Below are positions 16,155 through 26,904 of a stretch of 64,000 bases of DNA, one piece after another. The stretch's first letter is position 1; every line of letters begins with the position of its first letter. The notes under the pieces were generated by a model. The model was not told the DNA's origin and ran no database searches. It worked only from the letters and a program-made list of their open reading frames with translations. Source of the DNA: a virus (Duplodnaviria; Heunggongvirae; Uroviricota; Caudoviricetes); the IMG/VR virus record IMGVR_UViG_2609460332_000008. The stretch is one strand, 5' to 3'. The translations under genes were made by a program, and so were the position numbers.

Positions 16155-17057
16155 TTATGCCGGGGTGGTGATGAACGGACTGACCACGATGTCCACATCC
16201 TTGTACCAGATGTTGGAATCGCCGCCGTTTACCAGCATGGCGTCAATGATGCGCTTCGCAGCCGCGCGATTTTTCGGTCCCACCACAAGGGTGGTCGGGC
16301 GGATGCCCAGCGGTTCACCGTTGGTGGCCTTCATACCCAGCAGCAGATTACTGGCGCTCTCGTAGTTCTCCGCTGTCAGTGCCGCACGGGAACCGACGGC
16401 GGTTTGCCAGAAGCCGAATCCTGCATTACAGCGACCGTCCACCCCGTACAGGAACTCGTTATTCTTGAAGGTGTGCTCGCTGTTCAGATCGTCCAGGGCT
16501 TCAAACTTAAAGGCGCGTCGCGTCTGCCAGATGATGGGTTTCAGTACCTGAGAATCATCAATCAGAAACCACGGTTCCCCCTGGTCTGATGCCGGGGTGC
16601 CGACAACGTTGCTGTATGTGCCGTCGCCCAGCGGGTGGTCTTCATCAAAGAAGTTCTGACCGTCAAAACACAGGGTGTTAAACCCGGCACACAGCAGGGG
16701 GTAACACAGCTTGTCCGGGAACTCTGACGTCTGGCGGCCATAGCGTTCAGCGATAATGCTGTACTGACCAATCTGATCGTCTTCAATGTGTTCGCGTTTA
16801 ACGCGGATCGAACTTTCCCAGGTTTTGTTCGCAAGGGTGTAACCATAACCGTCCAGCGTTGCCATCTGACGGGCGCTGACCCATTCTTTAATCTCCGGTA
16901 AATCTTTCATCCAGCCGTAGGTATTGGAAGCGGACGAACTCGGGATTTCAGAGGCGATGCGCTGCCACTGTGGGGTAACACCACTCAGACCACGGGTATA
17001 AGCGGCGCTCAGGCAGGTGGTCAGCGCGTGAAGGACTTCGGAAGTGACTGCTCCCAT
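16155..17057 (-). CDS. Major capsid protein (Mu T-like)
   Basis: 300-aa ORF following the protease/scaffold gene; conserved Mu-like head order. Confidence 0.7.
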   Translation of the reverse strand: MGAVTSEVLHALTTCLSAAYTRGLSGVTPQWQRIASEIPSSSASNTYGWMKDLPEIKEWVSARQMATLDGYGYTLANKTWESSIRVKREHIEDDQIGQYSIIAERYGRQTSEFPDKLCYPLLCAGFNTLCFDGQNFFDEDHPLGDGTYSNVVGTPASDQGEPWFLIDDSQVLKPIIWQTRRAFKFEALDDLNSEHTFKNNEFLYGVDGRCNAGFGFWQTAVGSRAALTAENYESASNLLLGMKATNGEPLGIRPTTLVVGPKNRAAAKRIIDAMLVNGGDSNIWYKDVDIVVSPFITTPA

Positions 17058-18019
17058 CAGTTATTCTCCTGTTTCGGTTTAGCGGCGAGGAACTCTTCCC
17101 CGGTAATACCCATGCTGCGGCACATCGCCAGTTCGGCGTCGGTCAGTGTCTGCGCGGGTTTATCCTTGCCCTGGCTGGGCTTGTCGTTGTTCACCAGCGG
17201 CTGTGCACCTCTGGTGTATTCCGCAAACTGTTTGCGGCCTTCTTCCGTGCGGCAGGTGGCAAGGAACATGTCACGGTTTGCCGGGGCCACTTTTCCGGCT
17301 TCGATGGCCGCATCCACAAGCGCTTCTGCTTCCTTAGCTTCCAGTTGCTGAAGGCGTTGTTCTGCGGTTTCTGCACGGTTCAGTGCCAGATTGTGGGTTT
17401 CCACCGGCACAAACTTCGTCAGGTCAGGTGTCTGTGCGCGGTTCAGCGCCACCTGTTCGCTCTCCTGAAGTTGTTTAATGGCGGCCACGGTATCGTCCAC
17501 CGTGGCGGATTCAGCCAGCCCAAGCAGGCCGGTGATTTGCACAGGTACTGTCATCGGGTTTTTCTCCGTATTCAGTGCAGGAAAATCCAGGTTAGGTTTG
17601 TTGGTCAGCCCGACGCTGGACAGGCGCGTCACCACACCCTCCGCGTCATGGAAAAACGCCGGGCTGTAATAGCGATAGCGGCGCTCGCTCAGCATCCACC
17701 TGGCGGATTCACTCCAGACAACACGCCCTTCAATGATGCCGTTGTCCGTCACCCGCAGTTCTTCCACCCAGCCATACGCCGGGGCTTCATCACCGCGTTG
17801 CCCTTTAATTTCGGTGGCGTGTTCAATGTCCACCGGAATTTTGATGTCGGACGAGCGGGTGACCACCTCATGCGGATTGCGGTTAATCCACGTCCGGCCA
17901 TCGCGCCCGGTGAACTCACCCGCAGGGACGAGTTCAAGCCATTCCGGCAGTTGAGCGGGTGTCAGCTCAGGGATGGGTTCTGGCAGGGAAAAACACAGCG
18001 CCAGCAGTTCCGGTTGCAT
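17057..18019 (-). CDS. Prohead protease / scaffold protein (Mu I-like)
   Basis: 320-aa ORF with Ala/Glu-rich coiled-coil C-terminal half (scaffold-like), upstream of the major capsid gene. Confidence 0.65.
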   Translation of the reverse strand: MQPELLALCFSLPEPIPELTPAQLPEWLELVPAGEFTGRDGRTWINRNPHEVVTRSSDIKIPVDIEHATEIKGQRGDEAPAYGWVEELRVTDNGIIEGRVVWSESARWMLSERRYRYYSPAFFHDAEGVVTRLSSVGLTNKPNLDFPALNTEKNPMTVPVQITGLLGLAESATVDDTVAAIKQLQESEQVALNRAQTPDLTKFVPVETHNLALNRAETAEQRLQQLEAKEAEALVDAAIEAGKVAPANRDMFLATCRTEEGRKQFAEYTRGAQPLVNNDKPSQGKDKPAQTLTDAELAMCRSMGITGEEFLAAKPKQENN

Positions 18020-18068
18020 GTCAGTCTCCGTCGTTTGGGGTTACCGACGGTCAGTATGCGGAAGGCAG

Positions 18069-18090
18069 AAAAAAAGCCGGATTTACCGGC
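18069..18090 (-). terminator. Rho-independent terminator between F-like and I-like genes
   Basis: Minus-strand hairpin GCCGG-TAAAT-CCGGC followed by a U7 run; 26-nt sequence identical to 25804..25829. Confidence 0.6.
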
Positions 18091-18232
18091 TTCACTGAAA
18101 ACGGGAAAATACCCCCTTCAAAACCCCTTCAAAAACGCCACAGCATCTTCAAAAACGTCAGAATGCACATTCACGCCATCAGAATAAAAAACGCGTTTCT
18201 GATGCGTTTCAGGGGGATTTGCGGCGGGAGGG

Positions 18233-22692: not shown

Positions 22693-22808
22693 TACGCTGT
22701 GAACTTTCGTATGCAGATTTCAGCGCGCCACTCTGGATTTCACGCCATGTCAGGTTGTGCGCCAGACGGCGGAGTTCATCACGGGACGCTTTACTTATCG
22801 GATTCTTT

Positions 22809-23108
22809 TTACGGTTCACGACGGCCCCCGTCTTCAGTTCCCGGTGTTTTCAGACCGGCGTATATTTCTTCGCGAACGGAGCGGATATCCTTACCCAGCA
22901 GCTTCCACAGCCGCGCACATGCCGGTGATGAACGCAGGGCACGTTTCATGGGGGTATCCGGTGCATCCGGGTTCCAGGGCTTTCCGGTCTGTTGTTCGTA
23001 TGCACGGACAATGGCGTTTTGCTCAATATCTGCCAGCACAAGGCAGTACGCCAGTTGCCGCACGACGGCCCGTTCTCCGCGACTTAACGGCTTCAGTTTT
23101 CGGGCCAT
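22809..23108 (-). CDS. Hypothetical protein (99 aa)
   Basis: ORF in the late region between lysis genes and terminase; no recognisable motif. Confidence 0.4.
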   Translation of the reverse strand: MARKLKPLSRGERAVVRQLAYCLVLADIEQNAIVRAYEQQTGKPWNPDAPDTPMKRALRSSPACARLWKLLGKDIRSVREEIYAGLKTPGTEDGGRREP

Positions 23109-23110
23109 GC

Positions 23111-23404
23111 TCAGTCCCTCGCACGGGGTTTTTTAACGCCCGGAACGCTGGACAGGCCGTTTGCCACATCCTCGCCGCTGCCGGTGATTTCAGCCACGTA
23201 ACAGCCGCCCACATCAGACAGACGAACCAGCCCCTGCTCGCGCAGCCATGCAAGCTGGGTGCGCACCACATCACGGGATACCTTATGACCGTAGGCCTGA
23301 AGGCAGGTCTGCAACACGGATTCATTCGCGCTGTCGCCACAGTCCAGCAGGGAACGCAGCAACACAAGACGACGGTCTTCAGTGAGGATCTCTTTCATCG
23401 CCAT
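23111..23404 (-). CDS. Hypothetical protein (97 aa)
   Basis: ORF tightly packed with neighbours. Confidence 0.4.
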   Translation of the reverse strand: MAMKEILTEDRRLVLLRSLLDCGDSANESVLQTCLQAYGHKVSRDVVRTQLAWLREQGLVRLSDVGGCYVAEITGSGEDVANGLSSVPGVKKPRARD

Positions 23405-23709
23405 TATTTTTTTTCCTTTAACTCGTTCTCTAATAACAAATCGCTGATGCGGGATACCTGGCGGATGGATGGCCCCAGCTCTTTGATTTCTCCCCGCAGG
23501 TTGCTGATATCCAGTTGCAGGCGGTGGAACTCATCACGGTCGGGTAAATGGTGTACCTGGCTTTCCATCACCGACATGCGGGAACGGAGTGAATCAAACT
23601 CTTCGCGTTTGACGTAGGTTTTCGCCAGAATCAGCTGAAGCAGGTTTATTCCTGTCATCAGCAATGCCCACAGAATGGGCCAGTTGGCTCTGATCATTTC
23701 CCAGGACAC
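23404..23709 (-). CDS. Membrane-anchored coiled-coil protein (101 aa), possible lysis accessory protein
   Basis: N-terminal hydrophobic segment WPILWALLMTGINLLQLILA followed by a charged coiled-coil region. Confidence 0.4.
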   Translation of the reverse strand: MSWEMIRANWPILWALLMTGINLLQLILAKTYVKREEFDSLRSRMSVMESQVHHLPDRDEFHRLQLDISNLRGEIKELGPSIRQVSRISDLLLENELKEKK

Positions 23710-23921
23710 GTTTTCCTCCTGCGTTCCCGCATCTGCTGACAGTCAATACAGGTCACCACATCCGGCAGCGCCGCAAGGCGCTGTGCCGGAATAACGTTCC
23801 CGCAGTCATTGCAGAAGCCCCGGCTGTGGGGCGCTTCTTTTGCCCGCGTCTGCCAGGCTTTAACGACGCTCTGACGCTCGTTCAGAACCACTTCACTGAT
23901 GCGGTCGATTTCGTCGGTCAT
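23694..23921 (-). CDS. TraR/DksA-family C4 zinc-finger protein (75 aa)
   Basis: CNDCGNVIP...CIDCQ four-cysteine motif in a small basic protein. Confidence 0.6.
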   Translation of the reverse strand: MTDEIDRISEVVLNERQSVVKAWQTRAKEAPHSRGFCNDCGNVIPAQRLAALPDVVTCIDCQQMRERRRKTCPGK

Positions 23922-24526
23922 TTCGGCCCCGCAGACATTTTGTGACGGCTCGATTTGCTGTAACGGGCAAAACCGTCAAGGGTTCTTACGCCGAGATAGC
24001 CCAGCGCCGGGGTAAGCAACATCAGCGTGATATCCCAGTCCGGTGACGGCATATGCAGCGAGATACCTCTGGCACAGGCAATGGCTCCGGCAATCTGGCC
24101 GCAGGAGAGCAACAGCACATAGGCCAGACTGCTGTAACAGGAAAGGCGGGCCAGCAGCGGGCGCGTCTGGCGCACATAGCTGTCCGTGGCGTTGTCACCA
24201 TTGCGGATGGTTTCCTGCTGTTCGTGGTGTGCGGCCTGCTGGTCAGCCAGCACCAGCTTCTGCCGTTCCACCTCCAGCTGTTGCAGCTGAATTTTCAGGG
24301 TTTCCAGTTGCACCAGTTGCTCCGGTGACAGCATCACCAGTTTTTGTTCCAGAATGCGTTGCTGTTCAGCAACGGGAAGGCTTTCCCGGACGCTTTCCAC
24401 CATACCGGCCACCGAGTCAGCGGCGGCAGATGTACTGCCACCAAACCAGCGCCCGACGGAACGAATCAGCCCCGGCCCGGCTTTCAGCAGAACAGAGGCG
24501 ATGCCTGAAAGGGTTAACGGATCCAC
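23918..24526 (-). CDS. Lysis-associated membrane protein with central coiled coil and C-terminal transmembrane segments (203 aa, GTG start)
   Basis: GTG at 24524-24526 preceded by GGAGG; coiled-coil LEQKLVMLSPEQLVQLETLKIQLQQLEVERQKL; two C-terminal hydrophobic segments. Confidence 0.45.
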   Translation of the reverse strand: MDPLTLSGIASVLLKAGPGLIRSVGRWFGGSTSAAADSVAGMVESVRESLPVAEQQRILEQKLVMLSPEQLVQLETLKIQLQQLEVERQKLVLADQQAAHHEQQETIRNGDNATDSYVRQTRPLLARLSCYSSLAYVLLLSCGQIAGAIACARGISLHMPSPDWDITLMLLTPALGYLGVRTLDGFARYSKSSRHKMSAGPK

Positions 24527-24939
24527 GGGAAACCTCCATACAGATAACGCTGAAGACAGAGCAGACCGCCGCAACTGCCACCACACAGCCAGAACACCGG
24601 ATGCACCGGTGACATCATCATCAGCGTGCTGAAGACGCAGCAGAAATATCCCAGCGCCCAGACCACCCATGACCACACGATGATGTGGCGACCAAAAGCC
24701 CGGTAACGGACCTCAGGCAGCAGGCGAAATGGCACATTCCCGAGGCTTGCGCTGTATGAAAACAACACCACCCCGGCAAAGGACAACAACATCAACACGA
24801 ACGATCGCCAGCCACATAACATGCTGATGATGAACATGCAGAGTGTCAGTCCGGCCAGCGGCCATGGGGTTCTCATCAGTCGGGAACAAAGCAGCCAGTC
24901 ACACAGTTTTAAAATTTTGTTCATTACCTTTTTCCACAT
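24514..24939 (-). CDS. Multi-pass membrane protein (start uncertain; may begin at a later Met near 24876)
   Basis: Strongly hydrophobic segments (LTLCMFIISMLCGW, VLMLLSFAGVVLFSY, VVWALGYFCCVFSTLMMM); N-terminal part of the long ORF is probably not coding. Confidence 0.45.
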   Translation of the reverse strand: MWKKVMNKILKLCDWLLCSRLMRTPWPLAGLTLCMFIISMLCGWRSFVLMLLSFAGVVLFSYSASLGNVPFRLLPEVRYRAFGRHIIVWSWVVWALGYFCCVFSTLMMMSPVHPVFWLCGGSCGGLLCLQRYLYGGFPWIR

Positions 24940-25150
24940 TGAATTTTTCCCTGTACTTCTGGCACTGCCAGAAAATGTCCCGTGTATCCACGGAGTTCCA
25001 GCCACGCATGTAGTAGCTGGCGTGTGTGCCGTCATGGCCGGTATAGTCCAGCGGTTTCGGGGGCGGACCTCCGGCCATGCGGTGCAGAACCTCCTGACGC
25101 AGGCGGTCACGCCGCCCGGCTTTCAGTGAGGCATCCCAGCCTTTGCCCAT
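24899..25150 (-). CDS. Hypothetical protein (83 aa) immediately downstream of the lysozyme-like gene
   Basis: ATG adjacent to the upstream stop; Trp/Tyr-containing soluble-type sequence. Confidence 0.4.
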   Translation of the reverse strand: MGKGWDASLKAGRRDRLRQEVLHRMAGGPPPKPLDYTGHDGTHASYYMRGWNSVDTRDIFWQCQKYREKFNVEKGNEQNFKTV

Positions 25151-25151
25151 A

Positions 25152-25748
25152 TCACCCCCGCGTGGCGGACATGATGCCCAGAGGGGTATCGATGATTTCC
25201 AGACAGGCGTCGGTCAGTTTTTCCATGCGGTTAAACCAGCCGTTCAGGTATTTACCCTGGGCGGGTTTTGACTTGATGATGTCGGCATAAAAGCGGGAAC
25301 GACGGACAATGCAGCGGGCCAGCAACCAGTCCGGGGTGAACAGACTCACGGCCTTACGGGTACGTGGGCCGATGATGCCGTCAGCATCCACATCAGCGGC
25401 TTCCTGCAAAATTTTGATGGCTTTTTTAACGCCATGCTGAACCGCTGCATCGAACACAAACATCGCCACGCCATCAGGCCACTGGTCACATCCGGCAGGC
25501 AGCCAGTAATCGCGCCAGTAAATCTGCGCGACCTGTTCGCGGGTTAAATCCTTAATGCGGGTATCCGGTTTGCCGTCGCCGTTGACATCGGTTTTGCCGT
25601 CAATCACACCGTCGCGGCGGTCAGAAATGCCGTATTTGGTTTCGCCGCCACGGTCAGTGGGGTCATTGACATAGACGCCTTCGATATCGGGACGCAGAAT
25701 GAAATTCAGCGCATGCTCAAAGGCCGGGGAGAATTTTTGATTTTCCAT
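25152..25748 (-). CDS. Peptidoglycan hydrolase, GH108-like lysozyme with peptidoglycan-binding C-terminus (putative endolysin)
   Basis: Motif EGVYVNDPTDRGGETKYGIS typical of the GH108 muramidase family; first gene after the early-operon terminator. Confidence 0.6.
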   Translation of the reverse strand: MENQKFSPAFEHALNFILRPDIEGVYVNDPTDRGGETKYGISDRRDGVIDGKTDVNGDGKPDTRIKDLTREQVAQIYWRDYWLPAGCDQWPDGVAMFVFDAAVQHGVKKAIKILQEAADVDADGIIGPRTRKAVSLFTPDWLLARCIVRRSRFYADIIKSKPAQGKYLNGWFNRMEKLTDACLEIIDTPLGIMSATRG

Positions 25749-25803
25749 AAAAGCACCTGTGAAGCAGATTTAAACGTGGTCTGCTTCATGGTGCCGGAGG
25801 CAT

Positions 25804-25825
25804 AAAAAAAGCCGGATTTACCGGC
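25804..25825 (-). terminator. Rho-independent terminator at the end of the early operon
   Basis: Minus-strand hairpin GCCGG-TAAAT-CCGGC followed by U7, directly after the Mor/C-like gene stop. Confidence 0.65.
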
Positions 25826-25833
25826 TTCATTGA

Positions 25834-26283
25834 TTAAGGGCGTCGTGGCGGACGACGAACGGGGTGAGGCAGGTTCGGGGAGGGGTAAAACAAATCCGGC
25901 TGGTATTTATTGCGCTCCAGACGTCGCATCCGTTTGATGGCCTTGTAGACGGTTTTATACGTCACCCCGTAACGCTGAACCAGTTCAGGAATATTATGGC
26001 CGTTAAAATCACGCCAGATACGCATATCCCGGACAAGATTCTCCAGAATATTCCCCCTCGGAACATAAACCTGCATCCCGCCGATATGGCGACAAATCGC
26101 CACAACCAGCTCAAGGGAATGGGCAGGGTCTGCACCAATCCGGGCCAGTTCTTTACGCAGCAGTGCGTTCAGTTCAGAAAGTAACGCCGGATAAGCGGTG
26201 TTTTCCTGGTAATCATGAAGATATTCCAGAACGCTGTCGTCCCGAAGGTCTTCGAATAAATCCTGCTCTTTCATCTGTTTCAT
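25834..26283 (-). CDS. Mor/C-family transcriptional activator (149 aa)
   Basis: C-terminal region IWRDFNGHNIPELVQRYGVTYKTVYKAIKRMRR resembles the Mor/C helix-turn-helix region; ATGA start/stop overlap with gemA. Confidence 0.65.
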   Translation of the reverse strand: MKQMKEQDLFEDLRDDSVLEYLHDYQENTAYPALLSELNALLRKELARIGADPAHSLELVVAICRHIGGMQVYVPRGNILENLVRDMRIWRDFNGHNIPELVQRYGVTYKTVYKAIKRMRRLERNKYQPDLFYPSPNLPHPVRRPPRRP

Positions 26284-26831
26284 ACAGCAATTCTCCCGCT
26301 GTTTCGTGCGCGGGCATACGCACTGGTCAGTGCATCATAGCCGCGCAGCTCCCGCCCGGTTTCGCTCACAGGTAAAGGCACACCATGTCGGGCAAAGGCT
26401 TCCCGGATGCAGCGCATATGCCACTGTTTGAGCGTTTCGAGCACAATCTGCAACGATTCCCCGTGACACCATGCCAGCGTGGAAACACCCTGACCGCCAT
26501 TACGTCTGGCCGTCAGGCGTTCAACGTATTTGTCCAGCGCGGCGTCGCTGATATCGGAAACGAAACCATCAAGGAACATCTGCTGCCAGATTTTGTAAAT
26601 CTTCTCGCGCGGTGTGACATGCCCCTTAAAGCGACGGCGGGGATGTTTTTTCTGCTTCTTAAAACCGCGCTCTTTCATGGCATCGAGCACCTGTTCCAGT
26701 TGTGCGACAGTCAGCTCGCGGCAACTGGTCTTGCCTGTGCACTGCACCAGAAAGGCGCGGTAAGTGTCATCGTCGAGTTGTAGATCACGACGGGCGACAT
26801 GAATTAATTTAATCAGGGATGTGCGATTCAT
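26280..26831 (-). CDS. gemA: GemA-like protein (Mu gp16 family)
   Basis: MNRTSLIKLIHVARRDLQLDDDTYRAFLVQCTGK... in the gemA position ahead of the Mor/C-family gene; identity assigned from recollection, so the symbol is tentative; start at ATG 26829-26831 with GGAGG upstream. Confidence 0.55.
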   Translation of the reverse strand: MNRTSLIKLIHVARRDLQLDDDTYRAFLVQCTGKTSCRELTVAQLEQVLDAMKERGFKKQKKHPRRRFKGHVTPREKIYKIWQQMFLDGFVSDISDAALDKYVERLTARRNGGQGVSTLAWCHGESLQIVLETLKQWHMRCIREAFARHGVPLPVSETGRELRGYDALTSAYARARNSGRIAV

Positions 26832-26904
26832 TATCGTACCTCCAGAAAAGGGGGCGGTGCGGCAACACCGCCAGAATCCACTCACTAAACAGAGGAAGCT
26901 TTTT

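Follow-up and report, generated by a model that had tools for sequence, protein, structure and literature searches.

Single Mor-family activator and a duplicated Pm-like element before the late operons of a Mu-type Escherichia coli prophage

The analysed window is a stretch of 64,000 nucleotides from a virus of the Caudoviricetes (IMG/VR record IMGVR_UViG_2609460332_000008), in which positions 640-34209 are occupied by a prophage on the minus strand. Both of its ends match the left and right ends of Mu exactly (34209 / 640), and a 5-bp target duplication, CCAGC, flanks the prophage at 635-639 and 34210-34214. The insertion splits an invasin/intimin-like inverse autotransporter gene, with Big_1 and Invasin_D3 repeats on both sides (97-639 and 34215-35756); other E. 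coli genomes contain the same flank without interruption. From c to mom all prophage ORFs are uninterrupted. Comparison with all Mu proteins by tblastn revealed a mosaic composition. The early proteins are close to those of Mu (c 94%, ner 99%, A 98%, B 90%, gam 92% and gemA 81% identity), and Mom and Com reach 96% and 73% amino acid identity, respectively. The packaging, head and tail proteins show just 23-61%, mostly 30-50%. The prophage is a natural hybrid of a Mu-type transposition and immunity region plus mom, joined to a different late region.

A prophage with 100% identity across the queried 3.6 kb (22700-26300) was found in E. coli KFu019, where it lies between ygbI and ltnD instead of inside the invasin-like gene. 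The module defined by this query is carried by 58 out of 5426 complete E. coli genomes, and at least 80% of the query length is covered in 45 of the 5426. Further downstream, at ~43500-63900, the window contains a separate lambda-like prophage segment on the plus strand with a gpA-type terminase, a lambda-family portal, a lambda-type tape measure, a J tip attachment protein and a tail-fibre N-terminal domain. The genes and sequence elements of the Mu-type prophage that are discussed below are as follows.

26280-26885, minus strand: gemA-like gene, penultimate gene of the early operon (PF06252, E 8e-33; 81% amino acid identity to Mu GemA)
25834-26283, minus strand: Mor/C-family activator gene, 149 aa (PF08765, E 3.6e-30)
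25816-25831, minus strand: predicted Mor operator, copy A, AATGAAGCCGGTAAAT, identical at 14 of 16 positions to the Mu Pm Mor site AGTAAAGCCGGTTAAT
25804-25828, minus strand: hairpin and T7 of element A, GAAGCCGG-TAAAT-CCGGCTTT and then a T run totalling 7 T
25788-25793, minus strand: predicted -10 of promoter A, CACCAT, 10 nt after the T run, as for Mu TATCCT
25152-25748, minus strand: GH108 / PG_binding_3 endolysin gene, first gene after predicted promoter A (PF05838, E 1e-23; PF09374, E 1e-16; phrog_315 endolysin)
24899-25150, minus strand: homologue of Mu E18/gp18 (69% identity to Mu E18; PF26867 on the L021-L024 orthologue)
23404-24924, minus strand: remaining lysis-region genes, including those for a 136-aa protein and a 202-aa membrane/holin-like protein
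23694-23921, minus strand: TraR/DksA C4 zinc-finger gene, within the first late operon
23404-23709, minus strand: gene for a DUF2730 protein of the releasin family
18081-18096, minus strand: predicted Mor operator, copy B, AGTGAAGCCGGTAAAT, identical at 14 of 16 positions to the Mu Pm Mor site
18069-18093, minus strand: hairpin and T7 of element B, an exact copy of the 25-nt element A in the gap between the F-like and I-like genes
18053-18058, minus strand: predicted -10 of promoter B, CATACT, at the same spacing as in promoter A and without a -35
17057-18019, minus strand: I-like head protease/scaffold gene, first gene after predicted promoter B; head and tail genes follow to ~1751
1404-1589, minus strand: com (73% amino acid identity to Mu Com)
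758-1480, minus strand: mom (96% amino acid identity to Mu Mom)

The start codon of the activator gene overlaps the stop codon of gemA (ATGA), as in Mu. The PF08765 match of the encoded protein (104.6 bits, cutoff 24.9) covers profile positions 3-107 of 107, and phrog_532, 'late transcriptional activator', is matched with E 5e-41. [quoted passage not shown] Residues 1-66 of the protein contain 13 acidic and 7 basic residues and residues 67-149 contain 17 basic and 6 acidic ones; weak HTH profile matches lie at residues 94-121. In the alignment, the protein is of the Mor type in its beta-strand linker and in its recognition helix. The linker GGMQVYVPRG aligns to GGGQVYIPRG of Mor and GGRQFYIPCG of C, with G68, G69, Q71, Y73 and P75 invariant. 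With 63% identity to Mu Mor compared to 32% to Mu C (tblastn), a position adjacent to gemA, gemA-mor DNA that is 74% identical to that of Mu, and the Mor-like linker and helix, the protein is a Mor orthologue rather than a C orthologue. Two short motifs are present, N-terminal EQDLF and C-terminal QPDLF. The latter is shared with MuC, whereas Mu Mor has QPSLL there. QPDLF was described as a C-terminal clamp-binding motif which is needed for MuC-dependent transcription and which Mu Mor does not possess (PMC12867686).

The protein ends in a 17-aa Pro/Arg-rich tail, YPSPNLPHPVRRPPRRP, encoded by ~72 nt of unrelated sequence, and the same tail was observed in many E. coli and Salmonella copies. 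In the closest relatives (L021, 10408-10990; L023, 10399-10980) mor and the terminator are separated by a 159-aa ORF that carries a signal peptide. This secreted ORF is missing in the window (25834-25890), and the Mor proteins of relatives carrying it are 76-83% identical.

A second Mor/C paralogue was searched for in the whole window. The 149-aa protein has 1070 relatives at E <= 0.001, and from the best 150 an HMM of 125 proteins was drawn (122 single-domain relatives together with Mu Mor, Mu C and the window protein). Against all stop-to-stop ORFs of at least 20 aa in the six frames of the 64 kb, this HMM gave a single match, E 3e-43, identical with the gene at 25834-26283. No second Mor/C gene was detected in these frames, the runner-up having E 0.16 and lying within the terminase gene, and tblastn with Mu Mor and Mu C over the window revealed no further locus. 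In the controls, Mor and C were both recovered from Mu and from Yersinia phage vB_YpM_5 with E <= 1e-36, and an HMM rebuilt without the Mu and window sequences led to the same recovery. A single Mor-family gene is also found in the PGAP annotation of the KFu019 prophage. The window does not show the three-tier arrangement of Muvirus, i.e. two Mor/C paralogues with C on a middle transcript, which the two control phages with their two paralogues exhibit. The initial annotation had proposed a single Mor/C-family gene after gemA, and this stands: the hidden second paralogue that could have contradicted it was not found by the six-frame search, and the comparison with both Mu proteins places the gene on the Mor side.

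Between mor and the endolysin gene there are 85 nt, and element A lies in this gap. As RNA, its hairpin has a folding energy of -12.6 kcal/mol (z = -3.6). Elements A and B each consist of an 8-bp stem with 5 G-C pairs, a 5-nt loop and T7, and they were the top intergenic minus-strand matches of the terminator scan. Element A is a predicted intrinsic terminator of the early operon that overlaps an operator. In the Mu record AF083977, a terminator at 9179-9200 is annotated within the Mor-activated middle promoter Pm (9163-9233). When Pm is numbered with the primer coordinates of Ma and Howe (PMC4390567), the Mu Mor site AGTAAAGCCGGTTAAT is located at -51..-36 and comprises the 5' arm and loop of the hairpin; the -10 hexamer TATCCT is located at -13..-8. 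Element A is the homologue of this Mu hairpin inside Pm that overlaps the Mor operator. Because of this homology the lysis gene would sit behind a Pm-type promoter and not merely next to a stop signal. A strong terminator at 25804..25825 and a lysozyme-like gene about 55 bp further on had been described at this place before. The gene is the GH108 endolysin gene, whose ATG (25748) follows 55 nt past the last T, and the hairpin with its T7 (25804-25828) is retained as a terminator prediction. Since it is a Pm homologue as well, it should not be described as a terminator only.

The window contains the layout of a Pm-type promoter at element A, with a Mor operator, a T-rich spacer and a -10 at the Mu spacing, and with neither a -35 nor an extended -10. 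The predicted -10, CACCAT, is weak. No -35 was found for promoter A, where the windows 16-18 bp upstream read CCGGCT/TCCGGC/ATCCGG, and the promoter scan called no consensus sigma-70 promoter at either promoter A or promoter B. Transcription from promoter A is predicted, by analogy, to start near 25780. From these sequence correlates we infer binding of a dyad centred near -43.5 and activation of a sigma-70 promoter devoid of a -35.

Among the genes behind promoter A, the DUF2730 protein belongs to a family known as releasin in Mu (PMC9239132), and small proteins of no known function match phrog_2121, 12596, 1544 and 8988. E18/gp18 is the first gene of the Mu middle operon, and its homologue is here part of the lysis/packaging operon. 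The Mu-type middle operon is hence not simply absent; it is fused into this first late operon. The initial annotation had seen no room for a second activator or a separate middle operon; the first part of this statement holds, while the second has to be modified in favour of fusion.

The 25-nt string GAAGCCGGTAAATCCGGCTTTTTTT occurs twice in the window, on the same strand and with 0 mismatches, with 0 occurrences expected from 100 shuffles. Its second occurrence is element B. The repeat extends to 49 nt with 86% identity (18057-18105 compared to 25792-25840), and the hairpin of element B has a folding energy of -12.8 kcal/mol. A position weight matrix (PWM) derived from related elements, without the window's own boxes, assigned scores of 45.0 and 44.4 to the two sites, and 14.2 to the next-best site in the window. 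The start of promoter B is likewise predicted by analogy, near 18045, and the -10 hexamers of both promoters conform to xAxxxT. No additional Mor box was found in the head and tail genes from 17057-18019 down to ~1751, and no minus-strand intergenic terminator of comparable strength was found beyond element B down to the tail-fibre genes.

Short direct repeats, GTTTTTGAAG... and GGGGTTTTGAAGGGGG, lie upstream of element B (18100-18232). This region corresponds by position to the Mu G-I gap, the site of the annotated strong gyrase site, and part of it resembles Mu and Kp4866-3 by eye (AAACGCGCCACGG..TTTTT.AAC). Inverted repeats at 25761-25787 and 18028-18050 extend from just past the predicted -10 to before the ribosome-binding site and span the predicted start sites of both promoters, a feature that our model does not account for. 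An inverted repeat is present in all relatives too (L005, L008-L017; Mu 9216-9248 as L003), with constant position and varying sequence. The transcription start of Mu is mapped, and there the 5' arm is located upstream of +1, so that the hairpin could form only in read-through RNA or in DNA. RNAalifold found no consensus downstream of the -10 for copy A, where the sequences are too divergent to align, and only a weak consensus for copy B, hairpins being seen when each sequence was folded alone.

Com and mom represent Mu-like genes whose activator in Mu, C, is absent within the window. Within the com/mom region (758-1700), the upstream part (1590-1700) is a decayed Mu Pmom. The Mu C box TTATGCCCCAATAA aligns to TTGTGATTAAATAC (1634-1647), the Mu -10 region is deleted, and two of the three Mu GATC sites are retained (1662-1687). 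An extended -10-like string, TGaTTAAAT (1636-1644), is found at the former C box position. Neither at the P-like gene nor at com/mom was a Mor box above background detected, with a 16-mer search allowing 3 mismatches or with PWM scans, and the promoter comparison suggested earlier for the lysis, I-like, P-like and mom genes accordingly yields a Mor box at the first two and none at the others. Tail genes and mom would then require either a ~16-kb transcript or unrecognised promoters. MuC-type TTAT-N5-6-ATAA was not found in the late region, and chance-level matches occur inside early genes only; this absence is weak evidence, as the consensus was not validated on all four Mu late promoters. Weak Mor-box matches at 23082 and 7108 were rejected, being inside genes. 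A PWM match at 709-738 was rejected as the terminator after mom, ACAGCGG-TTAAT-GCCGCTGT, whose TTAAT loop is the same as that of the Mu Pm hairpin. Among the PWM matches in the window it ranks fourth (9.3; 11.9 with the leave-out matrix), probably by coincidence.

Ten loci with lengths of 17.8-20.4 kb were obtained by means of a Mor alignment; they belong to other Enterobacterales (Pluralibacter, Raoultella, Klebsiella, Serratia, Kluyvera and Brenneria). These ten loci, which cover ~20 kb around mor, and Klebsiella phage Kp4866-3 (33 kb) contain exactly one Mor-family gene each. In ten of these eleven relatives the box was found at two positions on the coding strand, before the lysis gene and, 6.8-8.7 kb past the first, before the I-like gene; from locus L016 only the copy before the lysis gene was seen. 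The same pair of boxes is present in the closer E. coli / E. albertii relatives L021 and L023. In Mu, which has C, the PWM located one strong Mor box, at Pm. The comparison suggests that the box pair accompanies the single-activator state. No box was found by PWM scan in Vibrio martha 12B12 and Shewanella MuM16-2, for which a different box is expected because their Mor is only ~34% identical.

Within 17 distinct versions of the box the core CGGT(T/A)AATC is invariant. Two stem positions covary, with 8 cells in which both sides are changed, a number reached in 0 of 500 shuffles, and 97% of the cells are paired. In several versions of copy B the T run has decayed, e.g. CTTTCTTCTC in Kp4866-3, with core and -10-like hexamer kept; the copy B hexamers of the relatives read CATACT, GACACT or CACACT at the same spacing (plus or minus 1). 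The pattern agrees with selection acting on operator and hairpin alike; the stem covariation taken by itself would also be compatible with an element under selection as a terminator alone.

To place the single activator among known phages, the 149-aa protein was compared by tblastn with 50,697 phage records, 50 of which contained a match. Two matches were obtained in 14 of the 50 records, and all of these belong to Muvirus (Mu, D108, SfMu, Mu_3F6, PhiR68_1 and the Yersinia vB_YpM phages). A single match was seen in the remaining 36, among them phages of Vibrio, Burkholderia (BcepMu-type), Pasteurella, Shewanella, Pseudomonas, Klebsiella and others. One Mor, next to late genes, is also listed in the genome papers of KS10 and SuMu. 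Outside the genus Muvirus, Mu-like phages as a rule have a single activator. The layout reported initially is real, but the arrangement is not unusual and therefore less of a surprise than suggested there. In the literature we found no paper on the promoters of single-activator Mu-like phages, and the pair of Mor boxes is apparently new, if hardly surprising.

Gene content, the lack of a second Mor/C gene, the homology to Pm, the duplication of the element and its conservation in relatives are established here. A two-step cascade is the likely and best-supported reading, based on the missing second Mor/C gene, the exact second element before the I-like gene and the box pair in single-activator relatives. 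The simpler cascade offered in the initial annotation as one of two options is thereby favoured, and its other option, a regulator located elsewhere, received no support inside the 64-kb window. Such a second-tier regulator would be no Mor/C homologue or lie outside the window: the TraR/DksA protein, small proteins of the first late operon, or a C provided in trans by another Mu-like prophage in the same host. The TraR/DksA gene is conserved at the same position in the single-activator lineage (Kp4866-3, martha, MuM16-2, L021-L024) and has no tblastn match in any Muvirus record. The function of the four small phrog-matched proteins is unassigned, and the P-like gene and mom are without a detected activator box, which also speaks for a further regulator. 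TraR/DksA proteins, however, act via the secondary channel of RNA polymerase and do not read promoter DNA; they could tune, but not replace, a site-specific activator. The I-like gene with its perfect Mor box needs no other factor, and C in trans would have nothing to bind, with no MuC-type boxes in the late region and the related mom site decayed. We consider a regulator of this kind unlikely.

It is similarly improbable that the repeated element is nothing but a duplicated intrinsic terminator, with the late genes being transcribed by read-through or antitermination from the early promoter. The canonical hairpin with U run and the compensatory stem changes, as expected for an RNA structure, would agree with this. 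The homologous Mu element is, however, an experimentally mapped Mor-dependent promoter, and the loop and flank bases of the Mu Mor site are invariant. Decay of the T run in several copies B, where core box and -10-like hexamer stay, is not in line with a terminator function alone, and two strong terminators without restart would block the lysis and structural genes. That the prophage is a defective remnant which recently lost C and the middle operon, its single activator being without functional meaning, is very improbable. Ends are intact with the 5-bp target duplication, the ORFs are uninterrupted from c to mom, and the same gene order occurs in many species and phage records (the Kp4866-3 record is flagged UNVERIFIED), the module covering at least 80% of the query in the 45 E. 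coli genomes mentioned above. A late region with 30-50% identity to Mu points to a different lineage and not to Mu with a deletion, even if its early genes and mom (A 98%, mom 96%) are very near those of Mu, the promoter region of mom seems decayed and the 159-aa ORF after mor is missing relative to the closest relatives. As a whole, the data are best explained by an intact Mu-type transposable prophage with a two-tier lytic cascade and one activator, and we hold this explanation with good, though not full, confidence.

For this two-tier cascade the following course can be proposed, in which we infer the binding of Mor, the activity and start sites of the promoters, termination and the coupling to the clamp. 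In this course, the early operon (ner, A, B ... gam ... gemA, mor) would end at the hairpin and T7 of element A. The Mor orthologue made from the early transcript would bind operator A before the endolysin gene and also operator B before the I-like protease gene, and recruit sigma-70 RNA polymerase to the two sites. From promoter A, transcription would cover the genes for the endolysin, the gp18-like protein, two membrane proteins, the TraR/DksA-like protein and the DUF2730 releasin-like protein, and the operon would continue with the gp26- and gp27-like proteins, terminase, portal and F. At element B this transcript would be stopped and transcription restarted for the protease, capsid and tail genes, each cassette thus also halting the transcript that arrives from upstream. 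As the activator has the QPDLF clamp-binding motif of MuC, which is absent in Mu Mor, late transcription is probably coupled to replication in a single step. This coupling may provide the delay that Mu gets from its extra tier.

A more far-reaching reading, taken jointly, is tentative and in our view rather doubtful. It regards the element as a portable 'stop and restart' cassette, a copy of which before the head operon would let one clamp-binding Mor-type activator run the whole late programme. The three-tier cascade of Mu would be derived, C and C-type promoters having been inserted into an ancestral Mor-driven lysis operon. The inverted repeat, formed only in read-through RNA, could silence the translation of the next operon from escaped transcripts, and the Mu-derived mom may, without C, have gained a C-independent extended -10 promoter at TGaTTAAAT.

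With regard to transposable phages in general, the textbook Mu cascade (early, Mor, C, late) is the exception. The prophage offers a simple E. coli-hosted system for the question whether Mor alone runs late development. It could reveal in which way the specificity of the activator and the promoter boxes were exchanged as C came into being, and whether the replication-clamp coupling demonstrated recently for MuC applies to single-activator phages. For annotation, the case shows that a 'terminator' behind mor in a Mu-like prophage has to be taken for an activator-dependent promoter as well.

Compared to the Mor/Pm system of Mu, the prophage shares the position of mor after gemA at the end of the early operon, a nearly identical hairpin with T7, a Mor site with 14 of 16 identical positions and the same spacing from box to -10 without a -35. 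In contrast to Mu, where one Pm-type promoter drives E18-E19-gp20-C, two predicted Pm-type promoters directly precede the endolysin/packaging and the head-tail genes. The protein differs from Mu Mor in having QPDLF and the Pro/Arg tail instead of QPSLL. With Mu C it has in common the QPDLF motif, the likely role of switching on lysis and morphogenesis genes and a promoter before the I-like gene. It differs from C in its sequence (32% identity), and the late region is without an exact TTAT-N5-6-ATAA; in addition, the P-like gene is without a recognisable promoter and the homologue of Pmom has decayed.

Kp4866-3, martha 12B12, MuM16-2, BcepMu/KS10 and Haemophilus SuMu resemble the prophage in having one Mor-family gene after gemA, followed by lysis genes. 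The gene order in martha 12B12 and MuM16-2 is gemA, mor, small ORF, lysozyme, membrane protein, DksA/TraR and DUF2730. The order TraR/DksA, DUF2730, gp26, gp27 and terminase is shared with martha, MuM16-2 and Kp4866-3, and the paired boxes are shared with Kp4866-3 and the enterobacterial prophages. Unlike these single-activator phages, the prophage has a c/ner/A/B region nearly identical to that of Mu together with a Mu-type com-mom, and it is without the small ORF for a secreted protein that usually precedes the terminator behind mor. The Muvirus phages vB_YpM_5 and vB_YpM_6 of Yersinia carry a GH108 gene of ~75% DNA identity immediately behind mor and Pm, and a short ORF comes next at the E18 position. 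They differ from the prophage in keeping C, a lysozyme gene of the Mu type (annotated rrrD) and the late region of Mu. As C and the Mu late region are kept, the GH108 gene lies in a true middle operon in these phages. In vB_YpM_5 (L002) it is located at 2985-3545, between mor/Pm and C, and the arrangement points to recombination between both lineages at the Pm cassette.
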